From positions 1 through 32,252 of the forward strand of contig CAZGXZ010000003.1 in the NCBI GenBank assembly GCA_964530035.1: 32,252 nucleotides of DNA. The letters run 5' to 3'. Origin of the DNA: an uncultured Methanoregulaceae archaeon (GTDB taxonomy: Archaea > Halobacteriota > Methanomicrobia > Methanomicrobiales > Methanospirillaceae). How positions within the stretch are numbered: position 1 is the first letter of the stretch; every line of letters starts with the position of its first letter. Below are positions 8,756 through 31,112 of this stretch, in pieces. Under the pieces are notes generated by a model. The model saw only the letters and a program-made list of their open reading frames with translations. It was not told the origin of the DNA and did not search any database. A program made the position numbers and the translations under genes.

Positions 8756-9184
8756 TCATGGTTTTACAAGGACTGGCTCATGTTTGACCATGATCTCTCC
8801 TGCCATTGCGTTGTCATATAAGAGCCGTATCAACCGCTGCAGCTCAGCAAACTGCTGCCGGGGCTCTCCTCCTCCCTTCAGGAGACAGTAGTCCGCACCG
8901 GCACCGAATGCTCTGGCTATGATCTCATCGCGGTCATTTCCGGTGAAAAGAATGACCGGCGTGCCATTCCCGCCTGCCTTGATCTCAACCAGCAGGTCTA
9001 TTCCGTTTTTCCCTGGCATTTCGTAATCAATCACCAGTACATCGAAATGCTGCTGTCTCAACAGGACTGCCACATCGAAAGGCACGGTACAGCCTGTGAG
9101 GACGATCTCCTGGGACATTTCAAGAAAGAACCTTGTAATCTCGATAAGGTCCGCATCATCCTCAACATAGAGTACAGAGATCAT
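8756..9184 (-). CDS. Single-domain response regulator receiver protein
   Basis: VLYVEDD, DVLVIDYEMPGKNG, VILFTG, GADYCLLKG. GGAGGTG upstream supports the start at 9184 rather than 9304. Confidence 0.88.
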   Translation of the reverse strand: MISVLYVEDDADLIEITRFFLEMSQEIVLTGCTVPFDVAVLLRQQHFDVLVIDYEMPGKNGIDLLVEIKAGGNGTPVILFTGNDRDEIIARAFGAGADYCLLKGGGEPRQQFAELQRLIRLLYDNAMAGEIMVKHEPVLVKP

Positions 9185-9311
9185 TTCATGGAACACCTCC
9201 CTGTTCTTTTCCTGGTGAAGCCCCTGCCTGACCTTTTCCAGGGCATCCGGAAAGAAACGAAGATGGTACGCATCCCCGCTCCTGCCCCGGCGGAGCCTCA
9301 CCAATACATGG

Positions 9312-9878
9312 TTACGTGGCCCCGGCCTTCAGGCCTACTGTACCGCTGTTCATCCCTTTTCCGGCGAGACCCATCGAATCCAGGATGGCCCGTATGTCGA
9401 GCCAGATGATGAGATTCGTCTTGTCATGTTCCTTCACCCGGTTTTTCCGCCGGATTATCCCCGCAATATGGCTCCCCTTTCCATCATTCAGTCTCCTTGT
9501 TGTATCAACGATGTCTTTTAAGTAGGTGGATACCGAAAGGACCTCGTCTACCAGAAGACCCGTTTTTGACCTGCTGATAGCTTCATCGAGGACAATGATG
9601 CGGGACGTCCTGTTACCGGCCCCGTGTTGGGTGGAACCGATGGGCAGTCTCAATGTTTCCTTCATGTCGACGATGGTGGTAATCTCTCCTCGGAGGTCAA
9701 TCACACCCCGGATATGGGTGGGATAATCAGGGAGAGCGGTGATTTGGGTTGAATCCACCACTTCCCTGACATCAAAGAGATTGATCGCATAATGGTCATT
9801 GCCCATGAGAAACTCCACGACCTGGATAGTCTCCCCGGCAGGACCTGCGGAATTGACCAGTTCTTCAGTTAACGCCAT
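9312..9878 (-). CDS. cheW: Chemotaxis coupling protein CheW
   Basis: QVVEFLMG..YAI..VREV, IRGVIDLRGEITTIVD and GLLVDEVLSV; starts 10 bp downstream of a chemoreceptor gene. Confidence 0.93.
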   Translation of the reverse strand: MALTEELVNSAGPAGETIQVVEFLMGNDHYAINLFDVREVVDSTQITALPDYPTHIRGVIDLRGEITTIVDMKETLRLPIGSTQHGAGNRTSRIIVLDEAISRSKTGLLVDEVLSVSTYLKDIVDTTRRLNDGKGSHIAGIIRRKNRVKEHDKTNLIIWLDIRAILDSMGLAGKGMNSGTVGLKAGAT

Positions 9879-9888
9879 ATGCTGCCCT

Positions 9889-12450
9889 TCAATAGGTGAA
9901 CCTTGAAATGCTCCTGGAGACGCTGTCCACGATGGTGTTCACGTTCCCTATGACATTGGTTATCTGCTCGACGGCCGCAGAGGCCTCCTCACTGGCAGCC
10001 GCGGACTCCCCCGCCTCACGGGCCGTTGACCTGACAAGCCCGGACACTTCATTCACCGTGGCGGTTATCTCATGGAGGGACGAGGCCTGTTCCTCCGTGG
10101 CAGCTGCGACACCAACTATCGTGGCCGAGATCTCACCGAGCGATGAGTTCATCTGGTTGAATATCTTCAGGGTGTCCGTAAGTGCGGCATTCCCCTTTTT
10201 AACCTCGTTTTCAGCAATTTTAATGGCGTCGTTTGCTTTCTCGGACTGTTTCTGGAGCAGACTTATCATATCGGCAATCTCTTCGGCAGATGACCGTGAC
10301 TCCTGCGCAAGCGACTTGACCTCGGTCGCCACGACGGCAAATCCTCTCCCGGCATCTCCGGCCCGTGCCGCCTCGATCGCAGCGTTCAGTGCAAGGAGGT
10401 TGGTCTGGCTTGCCAGGTCGGAGATCAGCCCGATGATTTTCCCGATCTGATCCATCTGGGACTTTATCTCCTGGATTATCGAGTTTACATCAGAGGTCGC
10501 CCGGGTAATCCCCGCCATTTCCTTTTCGACCGCCTCCGCGGCTCCCGCACCCTGTTCCGAGAGGACATTGGTACTGAGGGCCATTTTTGCGATGGCATCT
10601 GTCTTCTGTGCGACCTCGGAAACGGTTCTGGAAAGGTCTTCCATCGCCTTGAGGGTCTGGCTCAGTTCGGAGTCGCAGTTTTCGGCATTCAGGCTGACCG
10701 CCTGGGAACTCTTGGAGACCTGTACCGCGCCNNNNNNNNNNGCATGGGCCTCCTCGGCCCCTGCGGCAAGCTCATTGACCTGACGTGAGATATGCGACAG
10801 GACATCAGAAATCCCCTGGCCGATATTGTTCAGGGAGTCCCTGATGATGACAAAATCACCCTTGATTTCAAGTTTTTCGTTGAAACGGGTCTCAAGGTGT
10901 CCCTTGGAATAGTTTTCCGACACCCGGGATATCTCCCCGACCGCTTCGGACACCTTGGAGCCGATGTTTTCAAGGGCCTCCTTCAGGGCCCGGAAGTCGC
11001 CGGAAAACTCAAGCCTGTCGTCCATGCGGGCAGTGAAGTTGCAGTTTGCATATTCCTTCGAGAGACGCAGAGTTTCCTGGACGGGAGCGGCCATGATGTC
11101 AAGCATGCCGTTGATACCCTCTATCATCTTCCCGTTCGCACCGGAGTACTTGGTAACATCAGCACGGACCGACAGCCTGCCTTCGTGGGCCGCCGTTGTC
11201 AGCATCCTGATGTCCTCGTTCCGCATCAGGACGGTTTTTATCAGCAGGTTGAGGTTTGTCCTGATCTCGTTGAAATCACCCTGGTAGGTATCCGTGATAG
11301 GGGAGGGGATCTCCCCGTTGCTAATCATCTCGATGTATCGGGCCGCCATTCTCATCGGAGTGATAACCGCGTCAAGGACATTATTGACACCGTCGAGCAT
11401 TTTACCATTATAGCCGGGATATTTCGTTGTGTCCACCCGTGTCGCGAGGTCCCCCCTGACCGCCGCTTCGGTCAGCATTTTGAGGTCCGCGTTCCTCATG
11501 TTGACAACGTTCGTCAGGTCGTTCAGTCCCCTGACGAGCCGTCCATACTCCCCGGGGTACTCTCTGGAGATGCTTTCCGGGAGCGTGCCAGCAGAGATCT
11601 GGCCGATGTAGCTCACGGCAATGTTAAAGGGTGCAATTATCGCTTCAAGAAGGGCGTTGATCTCCCGGATGAGTTTCCCGTTCGCACCGGCATACTTCGT
11701 ATCGTCGAGACGTCCTGAAAGGTCCCCCCGTTCAAGCGCCAGCGACAGGTTTGCTATGTCCTGGTTCCTGGTCTGGATCAGGCTGATAAGGTTGTTGATA
11801 TCCGTTGCAGCAGTACCGAGGGGACCGGGGCACGTAACAGGAATCATCCCTGGTACCTCGCCACTGCTGATCTGGTGAATGGTATTTCCTATCTGTCCGA
11901 TAGGAATTGTCAGGGTATCCAGGATGCTGTTCACTGCCTCTGCCATAACCTTGAAATCTCCTGACATTTGAGCCGGATCGGCTCGTGCCGAAAAATTCCC
12001 GTCGCGTATATCCTCTGCGAGCCTGGTAAAAACACCGAGGGCCGTTTTCTGGTCCTTCTGGTCGACCAGCACCTTGATCACACCGGTCACATCCCCCTTG
12101 GTGCTTTTTATCGGGGAAACCGCATATTTTACCGGGTTGGAAAAACCGTTCCGGCTCAGGACCCCTTCTCCGGTCTGGGGCATGGCCGTGATGACCGCCT
12201 GTGTTACAACATCACCACTGCCGTTCTCAAAATTGCCAATAATAAGATTGCAGTACTTTCCTATACAGGCATCGGGGGGTCTCCCCGCCATGTGCTCCGC
12301 GGAACGGTTCATGGAAGAAATGGTCAGGTCGGGATGAAGACTGAAGAGAGATATTCCCATGGCATCAATTGCAGCCTGAATGGCCAGACTGGACTCTTTT
12401 CCGGGGTCACAATACCTCTCACAATCACCGTGGTTATTTTCCAATCCCAT
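9889..12450 (-). CDS. Soluble methyl-accepting chemotaxis protein, PAS-(HAMP-like)n-MA (contains assembly gap)
   Basis: N-terminal PAS, about five repeated units (GDLxxRxDxxKYxGxNGK), and MA tip [36 protein letters not shown]-gap at 10732-10741. Start uncertain (12450 or later). Confidence 0.92.
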
Positions 12451-12589
12451 CAACTCCAGAATGATTAGGAAGCGGATGAAAACGTGCCCATATATACATC
12501 GTTGCAAATTGCAATGCAAAATAATCAACTATATATACTCAAATTGCATTGCATCGTTATCTATCATTATCGGGAATGAGTGATGGGTA

Positions 12590-14311
12590 TTGCTAGGCAA
12601 TGACCAGGTACAGGAACGGATCAGGGAAGTCCTGAAAAAGAATGGAAAACCCATGAACATTGGTGAAATAGCCTGTTCCCTGGGGATTAACAGGAACACG
12701 ACCGCCCGCTACCTTGACATCCTGTACCATTCCAAGCAGGTGGAAATGCGACAGCAGGGCATGGCAAAAAAATACTACCTGTCTGACACCATTCCGCTCT
12801 CCTCCATCCTGAACTATTCATCAGACTTCATCATCATCCTTGACAAGGACCTCAGGATCCTGTACGTGAATGACAACCTGCTCCAGTTCGAGCAGAAGAG
12901 CCGCGAGTCCCTCCTTGGCATCAGGATCAATTCCGTCAGGCTCTCCATAACCGACGACCCGGAGATCGCCGGCGCACTGGAGTCTTCACCTTCAAAGAAA
13001 GTCTGCAGGACGACAATACGGAGAAATATAGCAGGAAACGAAAGGTTCTTTTCCGTCACCATTGCGCATATCTTTCTGGCCCCTCTGAAAACGGCGATCT
13101 CAGTCATAGCCGAAGACATCACGGAACGCGAGAGGTATGCAACCGCCCTGAAAGAGAATGAAGAACGTTTCAGGAGGATTTTTGAACATGCAGCCGTCGG
13201 GACCCTGGAAACAACGGTGGACGGGACATGCACAGGAGTCAACAAGGCAATGGCTGCATTTACCGGGTTCAGCCCAGAGGAGATGCTCGGAAAGACGCTT
13301 GCCGAGTTCATTCATCCCGATGATGTATACCTGGTAGAAAAAAGCCTGGAAAAATATGTGGTCAGGGAGAGCAAAGTGCTTTCATTCGAAGCGCGGGTCG
13401 TCACACGTTCAGGGAGAAATGCCTTTGGCTGGTTCAGTATTTCGCCACTTGCTGATATCCGGGGAACCGTCTTCCGACTGGTATGCCAGGTCCACGACAT
13501 CACGCAGAGGAAGGAAGCGGAACTTGCCCTCATGAACAGTGAAGAGCGGTTCAGGCAGTTCATTGAACATTTTCCCGGGATTGTTTTTGTTAAGGACCAT
13601 GAACTCAGGATGACCTATGCTTCCCGGTCGATTGAACGCATTTTCAACCGCCCGATGAAAGAGATCCTCTATCGCCGGAATGATGAGCTCTATCCGCCGG
13701 ACCAGGCAGGACAGGTATCGCGTGAGGAGTCATCCGTGCTTGTAATGCAAGAGGGCGATTTCCTTCACAAAGAAGAAATATTCGAGCTCGACGGTTCTCC
13801 GCACCACTTTGCCACATATAAATTTCCTCTCATGCAGGCCACTGGCAACCCCTGTATCGGCGGGCTATCCTTGGATATCACCGACGTGAAGAGGCTGCAG
13901 TTTGCCCTGATCCGAAGCGAGGAGAATTTCCGGCTCCTTGCCGAGCAGTCATCTGATATTATTGCACGGGTGTCCACAAATGGAGTTTTCCTCTATGTAT
14001 CCCCCTCTGTTATCACGATTACAGGGTATTACCCCCTGGAACTCATCGGGAGATCTGTTCTGGATTTCATCCACCCTGATGAAAAGGACACCATCAAGAA
14101 CATATACACCATGCTGTTGACAGGACTGAAAAAAACGACCATTCTTACAAGGATTAACCACAAATCCGGGGAATATGTCTGGCTTGAATCTCATATCAGC
14201 CTGATTACACGCCAGGGAGGGGGAGGTCCTTCCGAGATCTATCTGGTCCTGCGGGATATTTCTGACAGGATATCTCAGGAAAGCACCAGCCCCCGTAATA
14301 ATGAACTTTGA
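12590..14311 (+). CDS. Winged-HTH plus four PAS/PAC domain sensor/regulator with no kinase output
   Basis: N-terminal MNIGEIACSLGINRNTTARYLDIL...AKKYYL wHTH; PAS hallmarks (FIHPDD, FIHPDE, EDITER, HDITQRK, LDITDVK, RDISDR) separated by EERFR linkers. TTG start is uncertain. Confidence 0.9.
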   Translation: MLGNDQVQERIREVLKKNGKPMNIGEIACSLGINRNTTARYLDILYHSKQVEMRQQGMAKKYYLSDTIPLSSILNYSSDFIIILDKDLRILYVNDNLLQFEQKSRESLLGIRINSVRLSITDDPEIAGALESSPSKKVCRTTIRRNIAGNERFFSVTIAHIFLAPLKTAISVIAEDITERERYATALKENEERFRRIFEHAAVGTLETTVDGTCTGVNKAMAAFTGFSPEEMLGKTLAEFIHPDDVYLVEKSLEKYVVRESKVLSFEARVVTRSGRNAFGWFSISPLADIRGTVFRLVCQVHDITQRKEAELALMNSEERFRQFIEHFPGIVFVKDHELRMTYASRSIERIFNRPMKEILYRRNDELYPPDQAGQVSREESSVLVMQEGDFLHKEEIFELDGSPHHFATYKFPLMQATGNPCIGGLSLDITDVKRLQFALIRSEENFRLLAEQSSDIIARVSTNGVFLYVSPSVITITGYYPLELIGRSVLDFIHPDEKDTIKNIYTMLLTGLKKTTILTRINHKSGEYVWLESHISLITRQGGGGPSEIYLVLRDISDRISQESTSPRNNEL

Positions 14312-14650: not shown

Positions 14651-15532
14651 TCACAACGACTTCCCGCACCGGCTGCAGAACCGTGACCCGACCCTGACCG
14701 GGTTGTGACATGACGGGCATACGGGCCCCCGGGGCGGCGCATTTGAAGTGCCTGCCCCGACCTTGCTGCCACACCGGCCGCAGAACGCCGCCCCCGGCTT
14801 CAGGGGCTTTTTGCAGGACGGACAGAGGGGTTGCGAAAAAACGGTGACCGGCCTGCCCTGGGAGTGGGTTCCTGACTCCCTGGCGGTGATAGTATGGCCG
14901 CATTTCACGCAGAACCTGGCGCCAGGCTTGAGAGGGGTGCTGCAGGCCGTGCAGAACCTGGCGGTTTCCGGCTCGTGCCGGGGTTCCTGGACGGAAGGTC
15001 CCCGGGGCTCTTCCTGCTCCTGTCCGGAGGGGTGTCCTGCCGGAGGGGACATGGCAGGGTGAACCTCAACGGGCGCGGCAACCTCTTCCCCGTCCTGGAC
15101 CTTGACCTGGTCCTCCCAGGCCACGTTGCTCCTGTCGAGGAATATGGCAACCACCTTCTGGAGCTTCTCGACCTGTTCCTCAAGCGGGGGTGTGAAGGCA
15201 TCGAGCCAGTGAGCGGTTCCGATATAGTACTGCAACGCTTTCGAGGGCTCCACGGCCTCGACCCGGAAGGGGATGATGACGATGTTGTTGTTAAAGGCCC
15301 GCTGGACCTCGCTCATGATGTGCGGGGACTTGTTCGTGATGTCGGAAAAGACGAGGACGAATATCCGGCTCGAATCGATGGCGTCGTAGAGCGCCTCTGC
15401 AAAGTTCTGTCCCGGGAGGATGTCCCTCGGTGCCATCCAGCAGCGGTACTGCTGCTGTTCGAGGCTGGCGCATATCGTATCCGCCACCGCCTTGTTCTCG
15501 GAGGGGTAGCTGATGAAAATATCGTGCACCAT
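14651..15532 (-). CDS. TIR-domain protein with three C-terminal zinc ribbons
   Basis: HDIFISY box 1, CWMAPRDILPG, AIDSSRIFVLVFS, SPHIMSEV (Glu at the catalytic position) and IIPFRVE; Pro/Glu-rich linker; three CxxC-x10-CxxCG units. Confidence 0.93.
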   Translation of the reverse strand: MVHDIFISYPSENKAVADTICASLEQQQYRCWMAPRDILPGQNFAEALYDAIDSSRIFVLVFSDITNKSPHIMSEVQRAFNNNIVIIPFRVEAVEPSKALQYYIGTAHWLDAFTPPLEEQVEKLQKVVAIFLDRSNVAWEDQVKVQDGEEVAAPVEVHPAMSPPAGHPSGQEQEEPRGPSVQEPRHEPETARFCTACSTPLKPGARFCVKCGHTITARESGTHSQGRPVTVFSQPLCPSCKKPLKPGAAFCGRCGSKVGAGTSNAPPRGPVCPSCHNPVRVGSRFCSRCGKSL

Positions 15533-15677
15533 GGGAAAGCGCATTATCCCTATGTAAAAAAAATGCTATATAGGTATCGAGAATGGAAAAAATTCCCGTT
15601 CCTTCAGATTCGGAGACGATATTCCCACCTGTTGCGCCGAATGCATTATTACGAAACCTGTGTAACGGGAATCATCC

Positions 15678-16697
15678 ATGATCCCCCTGCTGGTCCTCGC
15701 CATCGCCCCGGGCATCTTCGTCCTCTGGTATTTCTACCACCGCGACCGGTACGAACCTGAACCCCTCACGTATGTCGTGAAGGTGTTCCTGTACGGGGCC
15801 CTGGCAACGGTTCCCGCAGTCCTCCTTGAACTGCCCTTCCCGGAAGGGTTCCTATCCACGGTGGTCGCAGCACCTGTCGTCGAAGAATCAATGAAATTCC
15901 TGGTGGTGTACCTGACGGTCTTCCGGGACCGGGAGTTCGATGAGCCCGTGGACGGGATCGTGTATGCGGTCGCCGCGGCACTCGGGTTCGCGACGGTTGA
16001 AAACATCTTCTATGTCATGGTGGGCGGGTTCGAGACCGGCCTTCTCCGGGCGTTCCTATCCGTCCCTGGCCATGCCCTTTTTGCCGTCTTCTGGGGGTAT
16101 GCCCTCGGGGTCGCAAAGTTCCGGCCCCGTTCAGAATGGCCGGTGCTGTTGGGCGGAGGCCTTGCGGGAGGGATCCTCATGCACGCAGCCTTCAACGGGC
16201 TCCTCTTCTTTGGAAATCTCGCAGGACTTGTCGTCGTCGGCCTGTTCGTGGTACCGTTCGGATGGTGGATGGCCCACCGGAACATCGCCAGGGCTGAAAA
16301 CCACCCGGCCTGTGCGAAGTTCTCGGCACGGGGGGAGCCGACGGAGCCGCTGCCTCTGTCATCTATGGTCCAGGAGACCTGTCCGAAGTGCGGTTCGCCT
16401 GCCAGGCCCGGTGCACGGTTCTGTAACATGTGCGGCCTTGACATCCTCGGCATGAAGGAACACCATGCGGCCGTGCGGGAAACAACCGAAGGTCCAGGCA
16501 GGATATGCGCTCAGTGCGGAAAAAGCACCCCTGATGGCTCACGGTTCTGCATCCACTGCGGTTCCCGGCAGGACGCTTCAACAGGGCATCCAGCCGGCGG
16601 ACCATTGTCCTGCCCTGCCTGCGGAGAGGATATCCCTGAAGGCACCCGGTTCTGTCCGGCATGTGGCCTGGACCTTCGCAAAGACTCACGGATGTGA
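15678..16697 (+). CDS. PrsW-family intramembrane protease with three C-terminal zinc ribbons
   Basis: DRYEPEP, APVVEESMK, FDEPVDGIVY...GFATVEN, GHALF and HAAFN motifs, then three CxxC-x10-CxxCG units. Confidence 0.93.
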   Translation: MIPLLVLAIAPGIFVLWYFYHRDRYEPEPLTYVVKVFLYGALATVPAVLLELPFPEGFLSTVVAAPVVEESMKFLVVYLTVFRDREFDEPVDGIVYAVAAALGFATVENIFYVMVGGFETGLLRAFLSVPGHALFAVFWGYALGVAKFRPRSEWPVLLGGGLAGGILMHAAFNGLLFFGNLAGLVVVGLFVVPFGWWMAHRNIARAENHPACAKFSARGEPTEPLPLSSMVQETCPKCGSPARPGARFCNMCGLDILGMKEHHAAVRETTEGPGRICAQCGKSTPDGSRFCIHCGSRQDASTGHPAGGPLSCPACGEDIPEGTRFCPACGLDLRKDSRM

Positions 16698-16926
16698 GGC
16701 CTGATAATTCCCATGATCACGCCCCGGATGAATCTTCAACAAGGGTCGACCCATTCCCGGCGGAAAAGGGCATGCGGGCGGGATCTGCGCTGAGCGACAA
16801 GGTCCTGGTGCCTGGAGAGGCGAGGCGGGGAATGAAGATGGGCTTTTAGGCCTTGAAGGCTTGAGAGAGTCCCCGGCCCTTCCTTTCGGGCATATCTTTT
16901 AATTGAAGGATGGAAAAGTAAAATAT

Positions 16927-17312
16927 ATGGCTGCTCGCTTTTGCGAAAACTGCGGAGACCCTGTATCGGCTGATGAAGTGTTCTGTGAAAAATGCGGGAA
17001 CAGGATAGAACAGGCCTCTGCAGGACAGACCGCACCTCCCCCTGCCTACCAGGCCCAGCCCCCCGTTGCGGCCCAGCAACCAAAACAGACCAAAACCCGA
17101 TTATTGCCGCGGTGCTGTCCCTGCTCCTCTGCGGTGTCGGCCAGATGTACAACGGCCAGTGGAAAAAAGGGATCGTCCTCCTGGTCGGTGTTATCATCCT
17201 TGCCTACCTTATCGGCATATTCGCCATCGTTGTCACGTTGTATGCCATTTATGACGCATACACAACCGCGAACAAGATCAATAACGGCGAACAGGTGAAG
17301 GACCTCTTTTAA
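16927..17312 (+). pseudogene. Zinc-ribbon plus TM2-like small membrane protein, split by a 1-bp frameshift (real lesion or sequencing error)
   Basis: Frame 1 gives MAARFCENCG...FCEKCG and a Pro/Gln linker; the other frame gives NPIIAAVLSLLLCGVGQMYNGQWKKG...IYDAY. Adding one A to the A4 run at 17092-17095 fuses them as ...QTKNPIIAAVLS. Confidence 0.85.
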
Positions 17313-18950: not shown

Positions 18951-19164
18951 CCCGGGTCCCCCCTCTCCATACCTGGGAAAATAGCCTGGCCTGACTGCAG
19001 GGAAAAGGTCCTTTAGAAACGTCTACCGTGGGTCCCGCTTAGGGTCAGGAAAACCTGCGTCCAGGAGAAGCTGTGCCATCCTGACGTGGAGCCATCCCTA
19101 TCGTTCCCACAGTGACATGACCTGATATCTTAATCCACAGGGACGTCGCACATACAGATTGACT

Positions 19165-20469
19165 ATGACCAGGATTCCACGGTACCTCTGCGTTCTGTTC
19201 GTACTGGTTCTTTTTTTCCAGGCGGCGTCGGGTTCCATCGCGGTCAAGGACCTCACCATCAGTCCTGCAGGAAACCTCATATCCGGCCAGGACCCGCCGG
19301 AGGAGGTCAAGGTGGCATTTGGCATCACGTTCTTCCCCGAAGGAGGGGAGACGTTCCCGAGCGACGACACCCTTCACATGAATACGGACCTTGAAAACGC
19401 CAGATGGTCCTATATCAAGCTCCAGGACGGTTTTCCCAGTCCTCCCACAACCGATGCAGGAAAAAACCTGAACATCCAGGGCTGGGACCTCTCCTACCCG
19501 AAGTCAGTCACGATGGCACTCGCGGTGAACCTCACCGGGACCGTCCCCCAGGTAACCTCCACCGGTAAGAAGACCGTGCTCAGGGTTACCGAGGGGAGTG
19601 CCGGCGGCATCGTCCCGGGGTCGGAGTTCCTCCGGGAGGCAAATGTCGTCCTGTCAGGAAGCTCTCCCCTCCACTCCTCGACCGTGACGGAGACCCCCAC
19701 ACCGGTCCCCCAGACGACCGTGCCCACACCTTCGCAACCTGTACAGCCTGTAGCAGGACCGGACTCAGTGAATCTTCCAGGGTTTCTCTTGACCCTGGTG
19801 ATCCTGCTCCTGTCGTTCATCCCCCTCGGACTCCTGGTCTTCCATGACCACTTTGGCCTCGGGAGGATGCTGTACCCCGTCGAGGACCGGCAGCGGATGA
19901 TCGCCTCGGCTATTCTGGTGGTCTGTGGTTTCGGGCTGATACTCGCCCTGCTGACCGTCCAGAAGATGTTCAGCAGCCTGGCCGGAGCCGGGAGCGGTCC
20001 TGCCACCATCATAACCCTTGTCGCGCTCTTCCTCATGTCATACCTCGCCCTTTCGGCGCTGGCGCTCGCGGTCGGCTCCTTTATCAACCGGGCATTCGCA
20101 CGGACGGTCCGCATCCACCAGGTTGTGGCCCTCCTCACCCTCATCCTCACACCCCTCGTACTCTCCCTGTACGGAAAAGACCTTGATGCAGCGACACGGA
20201 CCATGGCGATGGTCATTTCGTTCCTGTCGGCGCTTGCATCGGGTATCACCGCCGTGTGGCTTGACCGTTCATTGAACGAGGAGCTCGGGAGGGATGACTG
20301 GGTCGGACGGGTCCTTGGTATCCTCAGGCGGACCGGTCACAGGACAGCCCCCCGGCAGGGAGAGGAGAGTCCGGCCGGCTCGGCCCTTGCCATACTCAAT
20401 ACCCGGCTTGCGAAGGGAGAGATAACCCTCGAGGAATACAACCAGATGAAGGACGCGATCAGAAAATAA
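19165..20469 (+). CDS. Membrane protein: signal peptide, extracellular beta domain, P/T linker, about 5 TM helices, C-terminal SHOCT domain
   Basis: Signal-peptide-like N-terminus, TETPTPVPQTTVPTP linker, hydrophobic helices, and C-terminal ALAILNTRLAKGEITLEEYNQMK matching the SHOCT pattern. Confidence 0.85.
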   Translation: MTRIPRYLCVLFVLVLFFQAASGSIAVKDLTISPAGNLISGQDPPEEVKVAFGITFFPEGGETFPSDDTLHMNTDLENARWSYIKLQDGFPSPPTTDAGKNLNIQGWDLSYPKSVTMALAVNLTGTVPQVTSTGKKTVLRVTEGSAGGIVPGSEFLREANVVLSGSSPLHSSTVTETPTPVPQTTVPTPSQPVQPVAGPDSVNLPGFLLTLVILLLSFIPLGLLVFHDHFGLGRMLYPVEDRQRMIASAILVVCGFGLILALLTVQKMFSSLAGAGSGPATIITLVALFLMSYLALSALALAVGSFINRAFARTVRIHQVVALLTLILTPLVLSLYGKDLDAATRTMAMVISFLSALASGITAVWLDRSLNEELGRDDWVGRVLGILRRTGHRTAPRQGEESPAGSALAILNTRLAKGEITLEEYNQMKDAIRK

Positions 20470-20602: not shown

Positions 20603-21367
20603 ATGACCGACAGGACCATCCAGGCATCCCAGGACCCCGGATACCTGGTCGAGATATCCGAGTACCTCAATGCTCTTGCCAGTCCCACCCGGCTCCAGAT
20701 CCTGACCGCCCTCGAGAACAGACCGATGGACCTGAAAGAGATCACGTCGGTCACGAAGACCAGTTACGAAAACACGAGGAAACACATGGACAAGCTGCTC
20801 CTCGCAGGCCTCGTCAGGAAGGAGGCCGGTCTGAGCTCCGAGACCATGACCGGGATCCACCCGGTCTGGAAATACTCCATTGCACGGGGTGGAATGGAGG
20901 CGATAATTACGAACCTTTCAATGTTTTCAAAAGTCCCCCTATCAGTCCCGAGCTCTGAGCTCGCCGGCCGCCTCCAGGAAGTACGGGCACAAGTTGGTGA
21001 GCAGGCCGGGAAACGGGGGGCCTGCCTCTACCTCGCCTCCGGTACCCAGGAGGGCACCATCATTCCCCTGGATACCGGGACAACATCCATAGGCCGGGCT
21101 GACCCGGGGGCAACACGGCCGCATGACTCCTGTTTCGAGCTTTCCCCGGAGTATAAATCAGTGTCCCGGGTCTCCCGCCCACATTGCAGAATCCACCACG
21201 GGACCTGCTGGGAGATAGAGGACTGCGGGAGCACCTCGGGGACGTTCGTCAATATGAAGCCGTTGACCGCAGGAAAGCGGTACGAGGTCCATGACGGGGA
21301 TACCATCATTCTTGGCACAGGGAACCTCCTGGCACGGTTTATCTTCCTCGACAACGGAGCAGACTGA
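20603..21367 (+). CDS. ArsR-type wHTH plus FHA domain transcriptional regulator
   Basis: LNALASPTRLQILTAL...ENTRKHMDKLLLAGLV (ArsR HTH); IGR, VSRPH and IEDCGSTSGTFVN (FHA). Confidence 0.92.
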   Translation: MTDRTIQASQDPGYLVEISEYLNALASPTRLQILTALENRPMDLKEITSVTKTSYENTRKHMDKLLLAGLVRKEAGLSSETMTGIHPVWKYSIARGGMEAIITNLSMFSKVPLSVPSSELAGRLQEVRAQVGEQAGKRGACLYLASGTQEGTIIPLDTGTTSIGRADPGATRPHDSCFELSPEYKSVSRVSRPHCRIHHGTCWEIEDCGSTSGTFVNMKPLTAGKRYEVHDGDTIILGTGNLLARFIFLDNGAD

Positions 21368-21400
21368 CAGAGGAACCTCCGATACCTGAAAAGCCCCGGT

Positions 21401-23047
21401 ATGAAGACCTGCCTGTTCATCCAGATCATACTCGCCGTCCTGATAATCGCAGGGACGGCACTTGCAGCAGGTGCTCCACAGGAATCGCGTGAGAATGGTT
21501 CCCTTGCTCTTCCCAGGCTGGACAACCCGGTCTTCCCACCCGGGCACCCCCCCGCATCCCCATCTTTCGACCCGGGCAGCAGTCAGCTCCCCCCTCCCTC
21601 CAGGGAGGTCAACCATACTGCCTCAAACGGACGCCCGAACCTTTCCGGCCCCTGGCCGTTGGACGGGAGGGCGGGAGGCCAGTCAGGGAACCCGCTCAGG
21701 AGTGACTCCATCACCGGGGTTGCAGTTTCAACCGGCATAATCCTCCTGATCTTCCTGGGCATCCTGTACACCGGGTACCGGATAGGCGCGACCTATTCCT
21801 ATGAAGCAGCAGGGAATATCCGGGCCTGGCTTGCCGTTGGTCATGCGGCCAGTGCCGTTCTCCTGGTCCTGGGCGTCCTGTACCTGCCTGTCCGCGGAGG
21901 TCCCCCTGAACCCGCCGCTGATACCGCAACAGCACTGCTCGGCATCCAGATGTATCTCCTGTTCTCCTCGACTGCTCAGGCGGTCTCCCTGTTCAGGGAC
22001 CGCCCTATCCCTCCCGCCCAGTACGCCCATATCTTTTTTGCATTCGTGGCAATCCTGATGACCCTCATCCCGGGGTACCGTTTCCTTGAGTCCACCCTCC
22101 TTTCCATCTCCCTCATGTACCTCCCGGGTGTTGTCCTCTCCCTGGTAACCCACCAGCTGACAGGGAGGTCAGGGCCCCGTGGCAGTTCCGGGCCCTCTCC
22201 TGCAGATATGACCATATCGCTTCCCAGAGGGGTGCCCTCGTCATTCCCCGTGAGCCTCCTCTCCCGGTACCACGACGTGAGCGTCGTCGGGACCGGGGGG
22301 CTCGCGGTCGTCTACCTCGCGACCCGTTCAGGAACGAACCGGCAGGTCGCGGTAAAGATCCCCTTCTCCCTCGACGAGATGAGCGGAAGGACGTTTCTCA
22401 ACGAGATGTCGACATGGAGGGAACTCCACCATGAAAACATCGTCGAGGTCTATGACCAGAACATCTTCCCGGTCCCGTTCGTCGAGATGGAGTACCTGAA
22501 ACGGTCGCTTTGCGACCTCACCTACCCGTTGTCTCCCGGGTACGCCGTTTCAGTAACAAAGGATATCGCAGAAGCCCTCCTCTATGCCCATGGGAAAGGG
22601 ATCATCCATGGCGACATCAAGCCCGGCAATGTTCTCCTCACCGACGACGGGCGGGCGAAGCTGACCGACTGGGGGCTCTCCCGCTCCGTGACCCGGGCAG
22701 AAGTCACGAAAAACGCCAGTTTCTCGCTGCATTACGCTGCTCCGGAGCAGCTGGCTCCGGAAGAGTACGGTGCGAGGGACACGAGGACCGATATCTATCA
22801 GCTGGGTGTCCTTCTGTACGAAGCCCTGTGCGGCCAGCCTCCGTACCTCAAACAGGGTGCGGGCGAGATGTTCCTCGCGGTCAGGAAAAATGCCTATACC
22901 CTTCCTTCGGAGTGCTCACCCGCACTCGCCCCGTTTGACGGGTTGGTATCCCGGTGCCTGAAAGCTGACCCGGAGGAACGGTTCGGTTCCGTGCAAGAGT
23001 TCCTGGCCTGTCTTGACCGGGTCCGGGATGAGCTCTCAAAACCGTGA
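21401..23047 (+). CDS. Membrane-anchored Hanks-type Ser/Thr protein kinase
   Basis: Signal peptide, Pro-rich segment and about 5 TM helices, then GTGGLAVVY, VAVK, HGDIKPGN, DWG, YAAPE and DIYQLG. Confidence 0.95.
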   Translation: MKTCLFIQIILAVLIIAGTALAAGAPQESRENGSLALPRLDNPVFPPGHPPASPSFDPGSSQLPPPSREVNHTASNGRPNLSGPWPLDGRAGGQSGNPLRSDSITGVAVSTGIILLIFLGILYTGYRIGATYSYEAAGNIRAWLAVGHAASAVLLVLGVLYLPVRGGPPEPAADTATALLGIQMYLLFSSTAQAVSLFRDRPIPPAQYAHIFFAFVAILMTLIPGYRFLESTLLSISLMYLPGVVLSLVTHQLTGRSGPRGSSGPSPADMTISLPRGVPSSFPVSLLSRYHDVSVVGTGGLAVVYLATRSGTNRQVAVKIPFSLDEMSGRTFLNEMSTWRELHHENIVEVYDQNIFPVPFVEMEYLKRSLCDLTYPLSPGYAVSVTKDIAEALLYAHGKGIIHGDIKPGNVLLTDDGRAKLTDWGLSRSVTRAEVTKNASFSLHYAAPEQLAPEEYGARDTRTDIYQLGVLLYEALCGQPPYLKQGAGEMFLAVRKNAYTLPSECSPALAPFDGLVSRCLKADPEERFGSVQEFLACLDRVRDELSKP

Positions 23048-29895: not shown

Positions 29896-30164
29896 GCGAC
29901 TAGATAGACGGGGGATACCTTAAACCTATTTCGACGGGGATCCGGCCACCTGCCGCCAGGTTAGTGGTCCCTTAGAAACTGCTATCCCGACCGGGTTGGA
30001 CAACCCCGGACGGTCCGGGGAGGTACAGGAGCAAACCAGGACCGGAGATGCCGTTTCTGGTCTTTAAATCAACCGGCACTGAGTTTATACTGATGAAAAT
30101 CCAAGATAAATGATGGCTGCGGCCTCTGCCGCCTGCTACCACTTTGCCGAACGGGACCGTACCG

Positions 30165-31112
30165 ATGCTCTGCCCAACATGTGGATATCCCTGTCAGGAC
30201 CATGCTTTCTTCTGCTTAAACTGCGGGTCCCCCCTTACCCCCGACTCATCGGTCCCGGGAGGACCCGTTCTTTCCAGAAAAGTGCCCGGACCAGGCGTTA
30301 TTCCCGTTACAGACCCCGGGAAGATCTACGACCAGGGCACCGTTTATTTCAACAACGGAAATTATGCCACCGCACTCGTCTTGTTTTCAAAGGCCCTCGA
30401 GGCCGATCCGTCGCTTGACCGGGCCTGGAACGCAAAGGGAGCCAGCTATGCCAGACTGGGGCGGTACGGAGAGGCCCTGAAGTGTTACGAAAAAGCCCTC
30501 ATGCTGAAACCGGGTGACCGGAAATACCTTGACAACCGGCAAAAAAGCATTTTAAAACAGAGTGCCGACCCTTTCCGCCAGGTCCCGGTGAAATACATCG
30601 TCAATTCACAGACTCCTGACCCAACTTCCGTGACTTCTTCTTCTGTTCCGGGAGGTCCTGTCAGTTACGGGCCATATCGGGCAAACATACCCATCATGGC
30701 CCTTTGCCTGGCATTCTGGGCGGTTCCATTCCTGTCTTACTTCCTGGTGACGGGAGTGCAGGCATGGTCCTCACTCGTGCTGCTGGGAATCGCCACAGCC
30801 GGCGCCCTGCTGGCATACCGGGATGCCAGGTTCCTTGGTTCAGGGAAAAACCCTTCTGCCGCCGGCCTTGAACGGTGGAGGCCCGGGTCATGGGGGTGGT
30901 TCCTGTTCATCCTCTTCCCGGTATCATCGCTCGTCTATCTCCTAAAGAGGAAACGCATTTTCATGACCAACCGGGAGTCCCGGGACCTCCCCTATCTTCC
31001 AAAGACGCCCGGGCAGGTCGTTGTCAGGGGACTGGGGGTTCTTGTCATGCTGGCATCCGGTACCATGGTCATCGTTTCATTCATTCCCGTCATTTCCGGT
31101 CTGTTATCCTGA
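30165..31112 (+). CDS. Zinc-ribbon plus TPR plus multi-TM membrane protein
   Basis: MLCPTCG...FCLNCG ribbon; TPR motifs (YDQGTVYFNNGNYATALVLFSKALEADP, AWNAKGASYARLGRYGEALKCYEKAL); about 4 TM helices. Confidence 0.88.
   Translation: MLCPTCGYPCQDHAFFCLNCGSPLTPDSSVPGGPVLSRKVPGPGVIPVTDPGKIYDQGTVYFNNGNYATALVLFSKALEADPSLDRAWNAKGASYARLGRYGEALKCYEKALMLKPGDRKYLDNRQKSILKQSADPFRQVPVKYIVNSQTPDPTSVTSSSVPGGPVSYGPYRANIPIMALCLAFWAVPFLSYFLVTGVQAWSSLVLLGIATAGALLAYRDARFLGSGKNPSAAGLERWRPGSWGWFLFILFPVSSLVYLLKRKRIFMTNRESRDLPYLPKTPGQVVVRGLGVLVMLASGTMVIVSFIPVISGLLS

Follow-up and report, generated by a model that had tools for sequence, protein, structure and literature searches.

Thoeris, of which types I-XI have been described (10.64898/2025.12.03.692087), and the PrsW-RsiW-sigmaW pathway of Bacillus subtilis are among the closest known systems to a locus that we examined in an uncultured Methanoregulaceae archaeon. 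The window, by which we mean the whole stretch of 32,252 nucleotides analysed from contig CAZGXZ010000003.1, contains three adjacent genes, here called the trio, that encode a TIR protein, a PrsW intramembrane protease and a small transmembrane (TM) protein, each bearing the same kind of zinc ribbon. The trio is a real, clade-restricted combination that does not match any named system. We tentatively read it as two modules of a ribbon-tagged membrane-signalling network joined in one clade, in which a soluble, ribbon-tethered, signal-making TIR, co-regulated with PrsW, would feed a receptor with a RyR domain. As a discovery, the wider TIR-RyR receptor network of the methanogens studied here has the better support.

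Thoeris, as the main text of that report describes it, resembles the window TIR in having a catalytic Glu and, probably, in supplying an NAD-derived signal to a separate, often membrane-bound effector, which is an ion channel in type X and a SLATT protein in type VII (10.64898/2025.12.03.692087). The window operon, however, has no effector gene, its neighbours being PrsW and a PAS protein, and its TIR belongs to TIR_2 rather than to ThsB_TIR: it reaches 28.5 vs 220 bits with the ThcB4 model NF058526, and its match to the PADLOC ThsB model (E 1.7e-4 over 84 residues) is below membership. It differs further in its ribbon tail, its protease neighbour and the RyR domain as its family's partner; RyR is not mentioned in the main text of the Thoeris paper. 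The window TIR appears most like a Thoeris-type signal source, yet it falls outside Thoeris. Nor is it an effector of CBASS, Pycsar or SPARTA: a scan of 29 window open reading frames (ORFs) found no STING, SAVED or APAZ fusion and no neighbouring cyclase or Argonaute.

The RyR domain (PF02026) of that partner is shared with the phage proteins RyDEP and RyR Tad. Phage RyR domains, in the accessible text of two 2026 preprints, bind or cleave 2'- and 3'-cyclic ADP-ribose (cADPR) and serve viral anti-defence (PMC13232231; 10.64898/2026.06.04.730250), whereas the RyR domains considered here are cellular, fused to TM-TrkA_N or PAS-HisKA, and encoded outside the window.

The window PrsW shares with that of B. 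subtilis the M82 protease assignment and all four motifs; it differs in being archaeal, in having three ribbons, and in having TIR and ribbon-TM genes as neighbours instead of sigma and anti-sigma factors. To our knowledge such factors are absent from archaea. No extracytoplasmic function (ECF) sigma/anti-sigma pair lies beside the PrsW gene, a genome-wide search for these not having been made, and a sigma-70 promoter scan, with a model not applicable to archaea, gave nothing above chance. Archaeal PrsW targets are listed as unknown in the accessible part of one survey (PMC9263693), and in that of another bacterial PrsW-Zn-ribbon fusions are already listed as probable signalling peptidases (Zhang et al. 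2012, PMC3482391).

Two further proteins bear comparison through their zinc-binding domains, as far as the accessible text of each report goes. RAZR (PD-T7-4, a zinc-finger HEPN RNase; PMC13017515) has a Cys4 ribbon-like domain linker-fused to an oligomerisation-activated enzyme; it combines one variable N-terminal finger with an RNase, whereas the window protein combines three conserved C-terminal ribbons with a TIR. In the ZnR switch of Myxococcus GltJ (PMC11135422), a membrane protein has a zinc ribbon on its cytoplasmic side, and this ribbon can bind either the linker of GltJ itself or a partner protein; its spacing and its pathway are different ones. The ribbons of both GltJ and RAZR bind non-ribbon partners (PMC11135422, PMC13017515), GltJ being a precedent against assuming that ribbons pair with ribbons.

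Organization and conservation of the trio

The trio comprises the following features, in window coordinates.

14651..15532, minus strand: TIR_2 protein with three zinc ribbons, 293 residues from the start used by homologues (297 residues from the first ATG, 15544)
15161..15520, minus strand: TIR domain, with Glu79 and an RDILPG BB loop
14663..14953, minus strand: three CxxC-x10-CxxCG ribbons of the TIR protein (residues 198-216, 241-259 and 276-294), with Pro-rich linkers
15533..15677, no strand: divergent spacer of 145 bp between TIR and PrsW, with 46 identical bases and a TATA-like octamer
15678..16697, plus strand: PrsW (M82) intramembrane metalloprotease, 339 residues, by Pfam match and four motifs
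16380..16667, plus strand: three ribbons of the PrsW protein (residues 235-253, 277-295 and 312-330)
16883..16926, plus strand: conserved stretch 5' of the third gene that contains a TATA-like element (16897-16904)
16927..17312, plus strand: third gene, encoding a ribbon, a Pro/Gln linker and a hydrophobic membrane region; DUF5683/TM2-like, under both cut-offs

The three adjacent ribbon genes reported in the initial annotation are real, with three ribbons on TIR_2, three on PrsW and one on the ribbon-TM protein, and the head-to-head gap of about 145 bp was confirmed when counted from the homologue start at 15532 (133 bp from the first ATG). The TIR protein scores 85.6 bits against a TIR_2 cut-off of 28, and the protease 138 bits against a PF13367 cut-off of 23.5; with the NCBIfam equivalog NF033739 the protease reaches 171.3 bits, below the cut-off of 225. 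The PrsW motifs are intact, as had been claimed (E69-E70-x-x-K73, F104-x3-E108-N109, H132 and H169-x3-N173), and are invariant or nearly so across 107 sequences. The same holds for the catalytic Glu of the TIR: Glu79, in the 297-residue numbering, does not vary among 88 aligned relatives, and its counterpart in an alignment with oyster TIR-STING (6wt6) is the helix-C Glu. Judged by these residues, both TIR and PrsW look active.

A search of genome contigs returned the sister genome G001 as the only match to the locus. Within the spacer, 46 bases (15538-15583) are identical in G001 despite a synonymous divergence (dS) of about 0.5, and they include a palindromic TATA-like octamer (15566-15573) that we infer to be a promoter element. 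The ratio of nonsynonymous to synonymous divergence (dN/dS) against G001 is 0.01 in the TIR domain, 0.13 in the TIR ribbons and 0.29 in the TIR linkers; for PrsW it is 0.05 in the protease domain, 0.19 in the ribbons and 0.64 in the linkers. Additionally, a three-ribbon TIR, 56% identical to that of the window, and a two-ribbon PrsW, 58% identical, are each known from one 7352-bp contig; from the shared length we take these to be the same contig, in a third lineage of the clade, the gene order not having been seen. Strong purifying selection, the conserved spacer and the apparent persistence of the TIR-PrsW pair in this third lineage all agree with the initial interpretation.

In the window the third gene is split, the ribbon being in one frame and the membrane part in another; in G001 it is a single ORF of 128 residues. 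Contigs from four of four runs, representing four studies, carry one extra A after 17091 and are otherwise identical over 3.2 kb. The window may itself derive from one of these runs, but because none has the window's version the frameshift is a likely assembly error. The third gene is therefore most likely intact, and its treatment as a pseudogene was rejected. For its earlier description as a TM2-like membrane protein the scores lie below cut-off: the intact orthologue reaches 22.4 bits against a TM2 (PF05154) cut-off of 27.9 and 24.3 bits against a DUF5683 cut-off of 26.7, and none of five other PrsW-linked orthologues matches TM2 at E 0.001. One cluster of look-alikes in the ESM Atlas is 86% TM2. 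The 229-bp gap between PrsW and the third gene is poorly conserved except at 16883-16926, which makes a separate promoter for the third gene probable.

A TIR subfamily linked to RyR-domain proteins

The window TIR protein has no transmembrane helix, and no other TIR_2 was found in its assembly. Its subfamily occurs in 57 of 228 genomes of the family, where the layouts are signal peptide-TPR/PPC-TM-TIR and TIR-(ribbon)-TM-ectodomain; in seven members a single ribbon separates the TIR from the TM segment. Among the best 97 relatives, 60 have a predicted TM segment after the TIR, three have three ribbons and two have two. The model of the window TIR (predicted local distance difference test score, pLDDT, 86) matches TIR folds, the top ones including the MAL filament (TM-score 0.81) and the SPARTA TIR (0.78), and its BB loop is of the TLR type.

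The RyR domain is present in 62 of the 228 genomes, and it accompanies the TIR subfamily closely: 51 of the 57 TIR genomes have it (15.5 expected), 44 of them within 5 kb. We attach no P value to this co-occurrence, because kin genomes are not independent. Metagenomes yielded no match to the full TIR protein; a scan of them with the TIR alignment returned 78 loci at 47-57% identity, none from the window's clade, and RyR was present at 22. The RyR partner is usually a channel-like TM-TrkA_N-RyR protein, or else PAS-HisKA-RyR, and the His-x-x-Trp and Asp ligand residues of phage RyR domains are present in the cellular copies.

The initial annotation had proposed either NAD+ turnover or signal production as the output of the TIR. 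Because of its linkage to RyR, signal production is favoured and NAD+ depletion disfavoured. Most likely, the subfamily makes a cADPR-type signal from NAD+ for a RyR-domain partner, where the linkage is observed and the chemistry is deduced from it. In the literature consulted for comparison, no signal source is assigned for cellular RyR-domain proteins; nor did we find a description of TIR with PrsW, of TIR-DZR in methanogens or of cellular TIR-RyR pairs in its main texts (supplements not covered). The locus supplies a small, easily assayed soluble TIR, a candidate PrsW substrate and a candidate receptor. With these, it can be tested whether prokaryotic TIR-made cADPR isomers gate RyR-domain channels and which role PrsW has where sigma factors are lacking.

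Across the family, Toll-like single-pass receptors lie in operons with RyR genes, for example at L262 5524-8953, L263 6751-9915, L266 1615-4701 and L288 7612-10664. These operons join a signal peptide-TPR/PPC-TM-TIR protein, or a TIR-TM protein with a variable ectodomain, to TM-TrkA_N-RyR or PAS-HisKA-RyR. A different, conserved cluster (L147 221-9672, genome G146; also L148-L150 and L152-L154) encodes a kinase, ribbon-bearing in some cases, two small coiled-coil proteins and a Vps4-like AAA ATPase, and continues with helical-TIR, TrkA_N-RyR and PPK2. The coiled-coil proteins look Snf7-like by eye, with no Pfam match, and the cluster is a possible ESCRT-like system tied to TIR signalling.

PrsW and the ribbon-TM protein

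About seven membrane helices with the C-terminus inside are predicted for PrsW by the model and the positive-inside rule, which would put its ribbons in the cytoplasm. PrsW relatives occur in 78 of the 228 genomes; of 120 listed homologues, 103 have one ribbon, three have two, two have three and 12 have none. To describe their neighbourhoods we used the DNA around 82 of 84 PrsW matches (G231 and G103 were left out), together with that around matches from other families; the PrsW flanks ranged from less than 1 kb to about 8 kb, and 99 PrsW genes in the set were distinct. Of these, 22 bear ribbons, and eight of the 22 have a ribbon-TM gene within 2.5 kb; none of the 77 ribbonless ones does. Ribbon-TM genes are themselves common (119 of 228 genomes).

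The ribbon-bearing PrsW proteins form one clade (SH-aLRT 98, quick tree), of which the window's genus is the first branch. Because the ribbon-TM neighbour is present in three sub-branches of this clade, the ribbon-PrsW and ribbon-TM pair is probably ancestral; in the largest genus the PrsW gene has mostly been relocated to a housekeeping region. Given this observed pairing, PrsW and the ribbon-TM protein are probably a protease and its substrate or cofactor.

Viral contigs gave seven distant PrsW-like matches at 18-32% identity. In a Foldseek search with the PrsW model nothing passed E 0.001; the highest TM-scores were those of gamma-secretase APH-1 chains (TMt about 0.5), and an APH-1/TM2D analogy was set aside as a curiosity. 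Toxin export by PrsW was rejected, the C-terminus of the window protein holding ribbons only and no toxin domain in a domain scan.

Sporadic head-to-head pairing of TIR with PrsW

A TIR gene neighbours five of the 99 PrsW genes, in every case head-to-head. Besides the window genome and G001, the pair is found in genomes G200 and G265 and at metagenome locus L193, all three with RyR genes nearby. The ribbon-PrsW of G200 lies within a TIR/STAND/RyR island; in G265 an extra, ribbonless PrsW faces a signal peptide-TPR-TM-TIR gene followed by TrkA_N-RyR; and L193 has three TIR genes, TrkA_N-RyR and PrsW. These cases occupy at least three places on the PrsW tree. Outside the window's genus, two adjacency events are seen where a random order of genes would give 0.05 (P 0.001), and we regard the locus-level association of TIR with PrsW as a weak signal. 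All three genes together were found only in the window's clade, among the 228 genomes and the PrsW loci examined, and a three-gene system conserved across Methanomicrobiales is not supported.

The island of G200 (L087 1691-16001 and L342, contig C5) extends over about 40 kb and has five TIR genes around the ribbon-PrsW. It also holds DUF4062-NACHT-TPR, TIR-NB-ARC-TPR, TrkA_N-RyR and AAA-RyR.

Proposed mechanism and alternative explanations

Under the reading that we tentatively prefer, the membrane anchor and ectodomain of a TIR receptor would have been replaced by three ribbons to give a soluble TIR, which would then have to cluster through its tail. Divergent transcription shared by the TIR and PrsW genes would provide co-regulation. 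The tail may dock on the cytoplasmic parts of PrsW, of the ribbon-TM protein or of another of the 25 ribbon proteins of the genome; PrsW would act on the ribbon-TM protein, and this envelope proteolysis would switch the TIR on or off. The TIR would make a cADPR-type signal from NAD+, to be read in trans by a RyR-domain protein encoded elsewhere. A bolder version, which we consider unlikely, is a eukaryote-like pathway of methanogens in which cADPR isomers made by Toll-like TIR receptors gate a RyR ion channel and PrsW is a recurrent proteolytic regulator; in the window's clade the soluble TIR would be ribbon-tethered to the protease complex, and intramembrane cleavage of the ribbon-TM protein would switch messenger synthesis. 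On that version, if true, archaeal PrsW would gain a sigma-independent output.

A number of observations count against the preferred reading. At the genome level, where the initial annotation had sought support in co-occurrence, the TIR subfamily and PrsW occur together in 20 genomes (19.5 expected) and all TIR_2 with PrsW in 28 (31.1 expected). Because this is the level of chance, neither TIR nor PrsW needs the other, and what survives of that expectation is the head-to-head pair at three further loci. The PrsW tree is a quick one on which two of the head-to-head rows join on long branches, and the adjacency P value becomes about 0.05 if both genes are confined to some 300 variable slots. The other head-to-head cases have different TIR architectures, two of them with ribbonless PrsW, so the ribbons are not a general TIR-PrsW link. 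The similarity of the TIR ribbons to those of PrsW ranks 9th among 15 pairs of multi-ribbon proteins. The residue four before the catalytic Glu is His, where oyster TIR-STING has Trp, which makes the TIR product uncertain; of 97 relatives, 39 have Gln at this position and 27 His, with one each for Trp and Asn and the rest unparsed. Finally, no RyR gene was seen in the window's assembly, in which the syntenic site lies beyond a contig end. Contig C113 of the window genome stops about 1.3 kb before that site, and the assembly likewise lacks the radical-SAM gene that would come in between, so the absence of RyR is not established; in G001 a TM-TrkA_N-RyR gene lies on another contig, unlinked to the TIR. 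A complex prediction of the TIR and PrsW tails with zinc scored 0.00 (mark 0.32) and carries no weight either way.

The ribbons themselves are widespread in the window genome. A regular-expression search of this 86%-complete genome found 36 copies of CxxC-x10-CxxCG in 25 ORFs, the carriers including TPR, RDD, PKD, M48-peptidase and small membrane proteins. A search of the ESM Atlas with the ribbon tail returned generic DZR clusters only (<0.9). The PG[AST]RFC motif, said earlier to be frequent, is exact in two of the seven ribbons of the trio. The view that the trio has matching ribbon tails did not survive either: apart from the middling rank of the TIR-PrsW pair, the third-gene ribbon is no closer than background (25th-47th percentile), and a private ribbon code for the trio was rejected.

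The alternative that fares best, though we think it somewhat unlikely, is that the genes are neighbours with no functional link, drawn together in islands where ribbon-bearing and other variable signalling genes collect, the TIR working with RyR and PrsW with the ribbon-TM protein, in a head-to-head accident kept by a shared promoter. Ribbon genes cluster as a genome-wide habit: on crude gene calls seven pairs are adjacent where 0.24 would be expected, as many as in none of 5000 shuffles, and the trio accounts for two of the seven. Triple ribbons are not peculiar to the trio either, being present on an M48 peptidase and two further proteins of the genome. The window genome and G001 have different left flanks, no TIR was seen within 3 kb, in the DNA examined, at 19 of the 22 ribbon-PrsW loci, and the chance-level co-occurrence is likewise what unlinked genes would give. 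Against it, all five TIR-PrsW cases are head-to-head and arise at separate places on the PrsW tree. The pair also seems to have been kept down to 56-58% identity, and in this clade the ribbons of both proteins have multiplied, where 103 of the 120 listed PrsW homologues have one.

We judge it quite unlikely that the trio is a Thoeris-like antiviral sensor, in which the ribbons would bind viral proteins and template TIR assembly, with the signal going to a RyR or other effector in trans and PrsW as a bystander or brake. RAZR offers a parallel, in that a domain related to Cys4 zinc ribbons recognises phage rings, according to the accessible text (PMC13017515). At metagenome locus L189 (471-3589) an integrase, SLATT_1 and a soluble two-ribbon TIR of the same subfamily reproduce the type VII Thoeris layout as given in the main text of 10.64898/2025.12.03.692087, and the ribbon-PrsW of G200 sits in its TIR/STAND/RyR island. 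The window locus, by contrast, has no effector gene, its neighbours being chemotaxis, PAS, GyrI-like, FHA and kinase genes, and the trio has no system-level PADLOC or NCBIfam match, in keeping with the earlier view that it is not a named system. Its G+C content at third codon positions (GC3), at the 92nd and 68th percentiles, is not foreign, and a recent foreign origin was rejected on this measure. Moreover, RAZR is at its most variable in the sensor, according to the accessible text (PMC13017515), while the TIR ribbons, at a dN/dS of 0.13, are conserved.

Taken literally, the initial annotation would have ribbon-ribbon pairing bring to PrsW a TIR that depletes NAD+ in bulk or serves as a non-enzymatic MAL/MyD88-like scaffold, which we consider very unlikely. 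The MAL and SPARTA folds among its top matches, its TLR-type BB loop and the three ribbons on both proteins fit such a role, but the tight RyR linkage speaks for a signal that diffuses, the invariant Glu is evidence against a mere scaffold, no second TIR_2 was found in the assembly for TIR-TIR adaptor pairing, and the two sets of ribbons have no special match.

Neighbouring genes and other ribbon clusters

The DNA around the trio is rich in signalling genes. A block of CheY-like, CheW, methyl-accepting chemotaxis protein (MCP) and helix-turn-helix (HTH)-4xPAS genes (window 8756-14311) has no counterpart at that place in G001, where the TIR gene comes directly after the first MCP. Downstream, a membrane protein with a C-terminal SHOCT (19159-20469) keeps its position in the sister genome, and an ArsR-type HTH-FHA gene followed by a Ser/Thr kinase (20603-23047) lies 3 kb downstream of the trio. 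A ribbon-TPR protein (30144-31112) is the fourth ribbon protein in the window.

More generally, the locus suggests that Methanomicrobiales have an extensive network of membrane proteins tagged with ribbons, which has apparently not been studied. A second ribbon cluster (L168 13764-18105, genome G000 contig C9) encodes ribbon-2TM, ribbon-TPR and ribbon-unknown proteins and the M48 peptidase with three ribbons, a parallel to the theme of a protease with a small ribbon-TM protein. At L167 314-7172 (G000 contig C5), L050 10588-16001 and L052 2240-6890, proteins of 1255-1524 residues are followed by a multi-ribbon gene. These large proteins have no Pfam match; they share an N-terminal part (31% identity over about 1050 residues), have unrelated C-termini and are polymorphic-toxin-like, and such genes lie near ribbon-PrsW in three other genomes.

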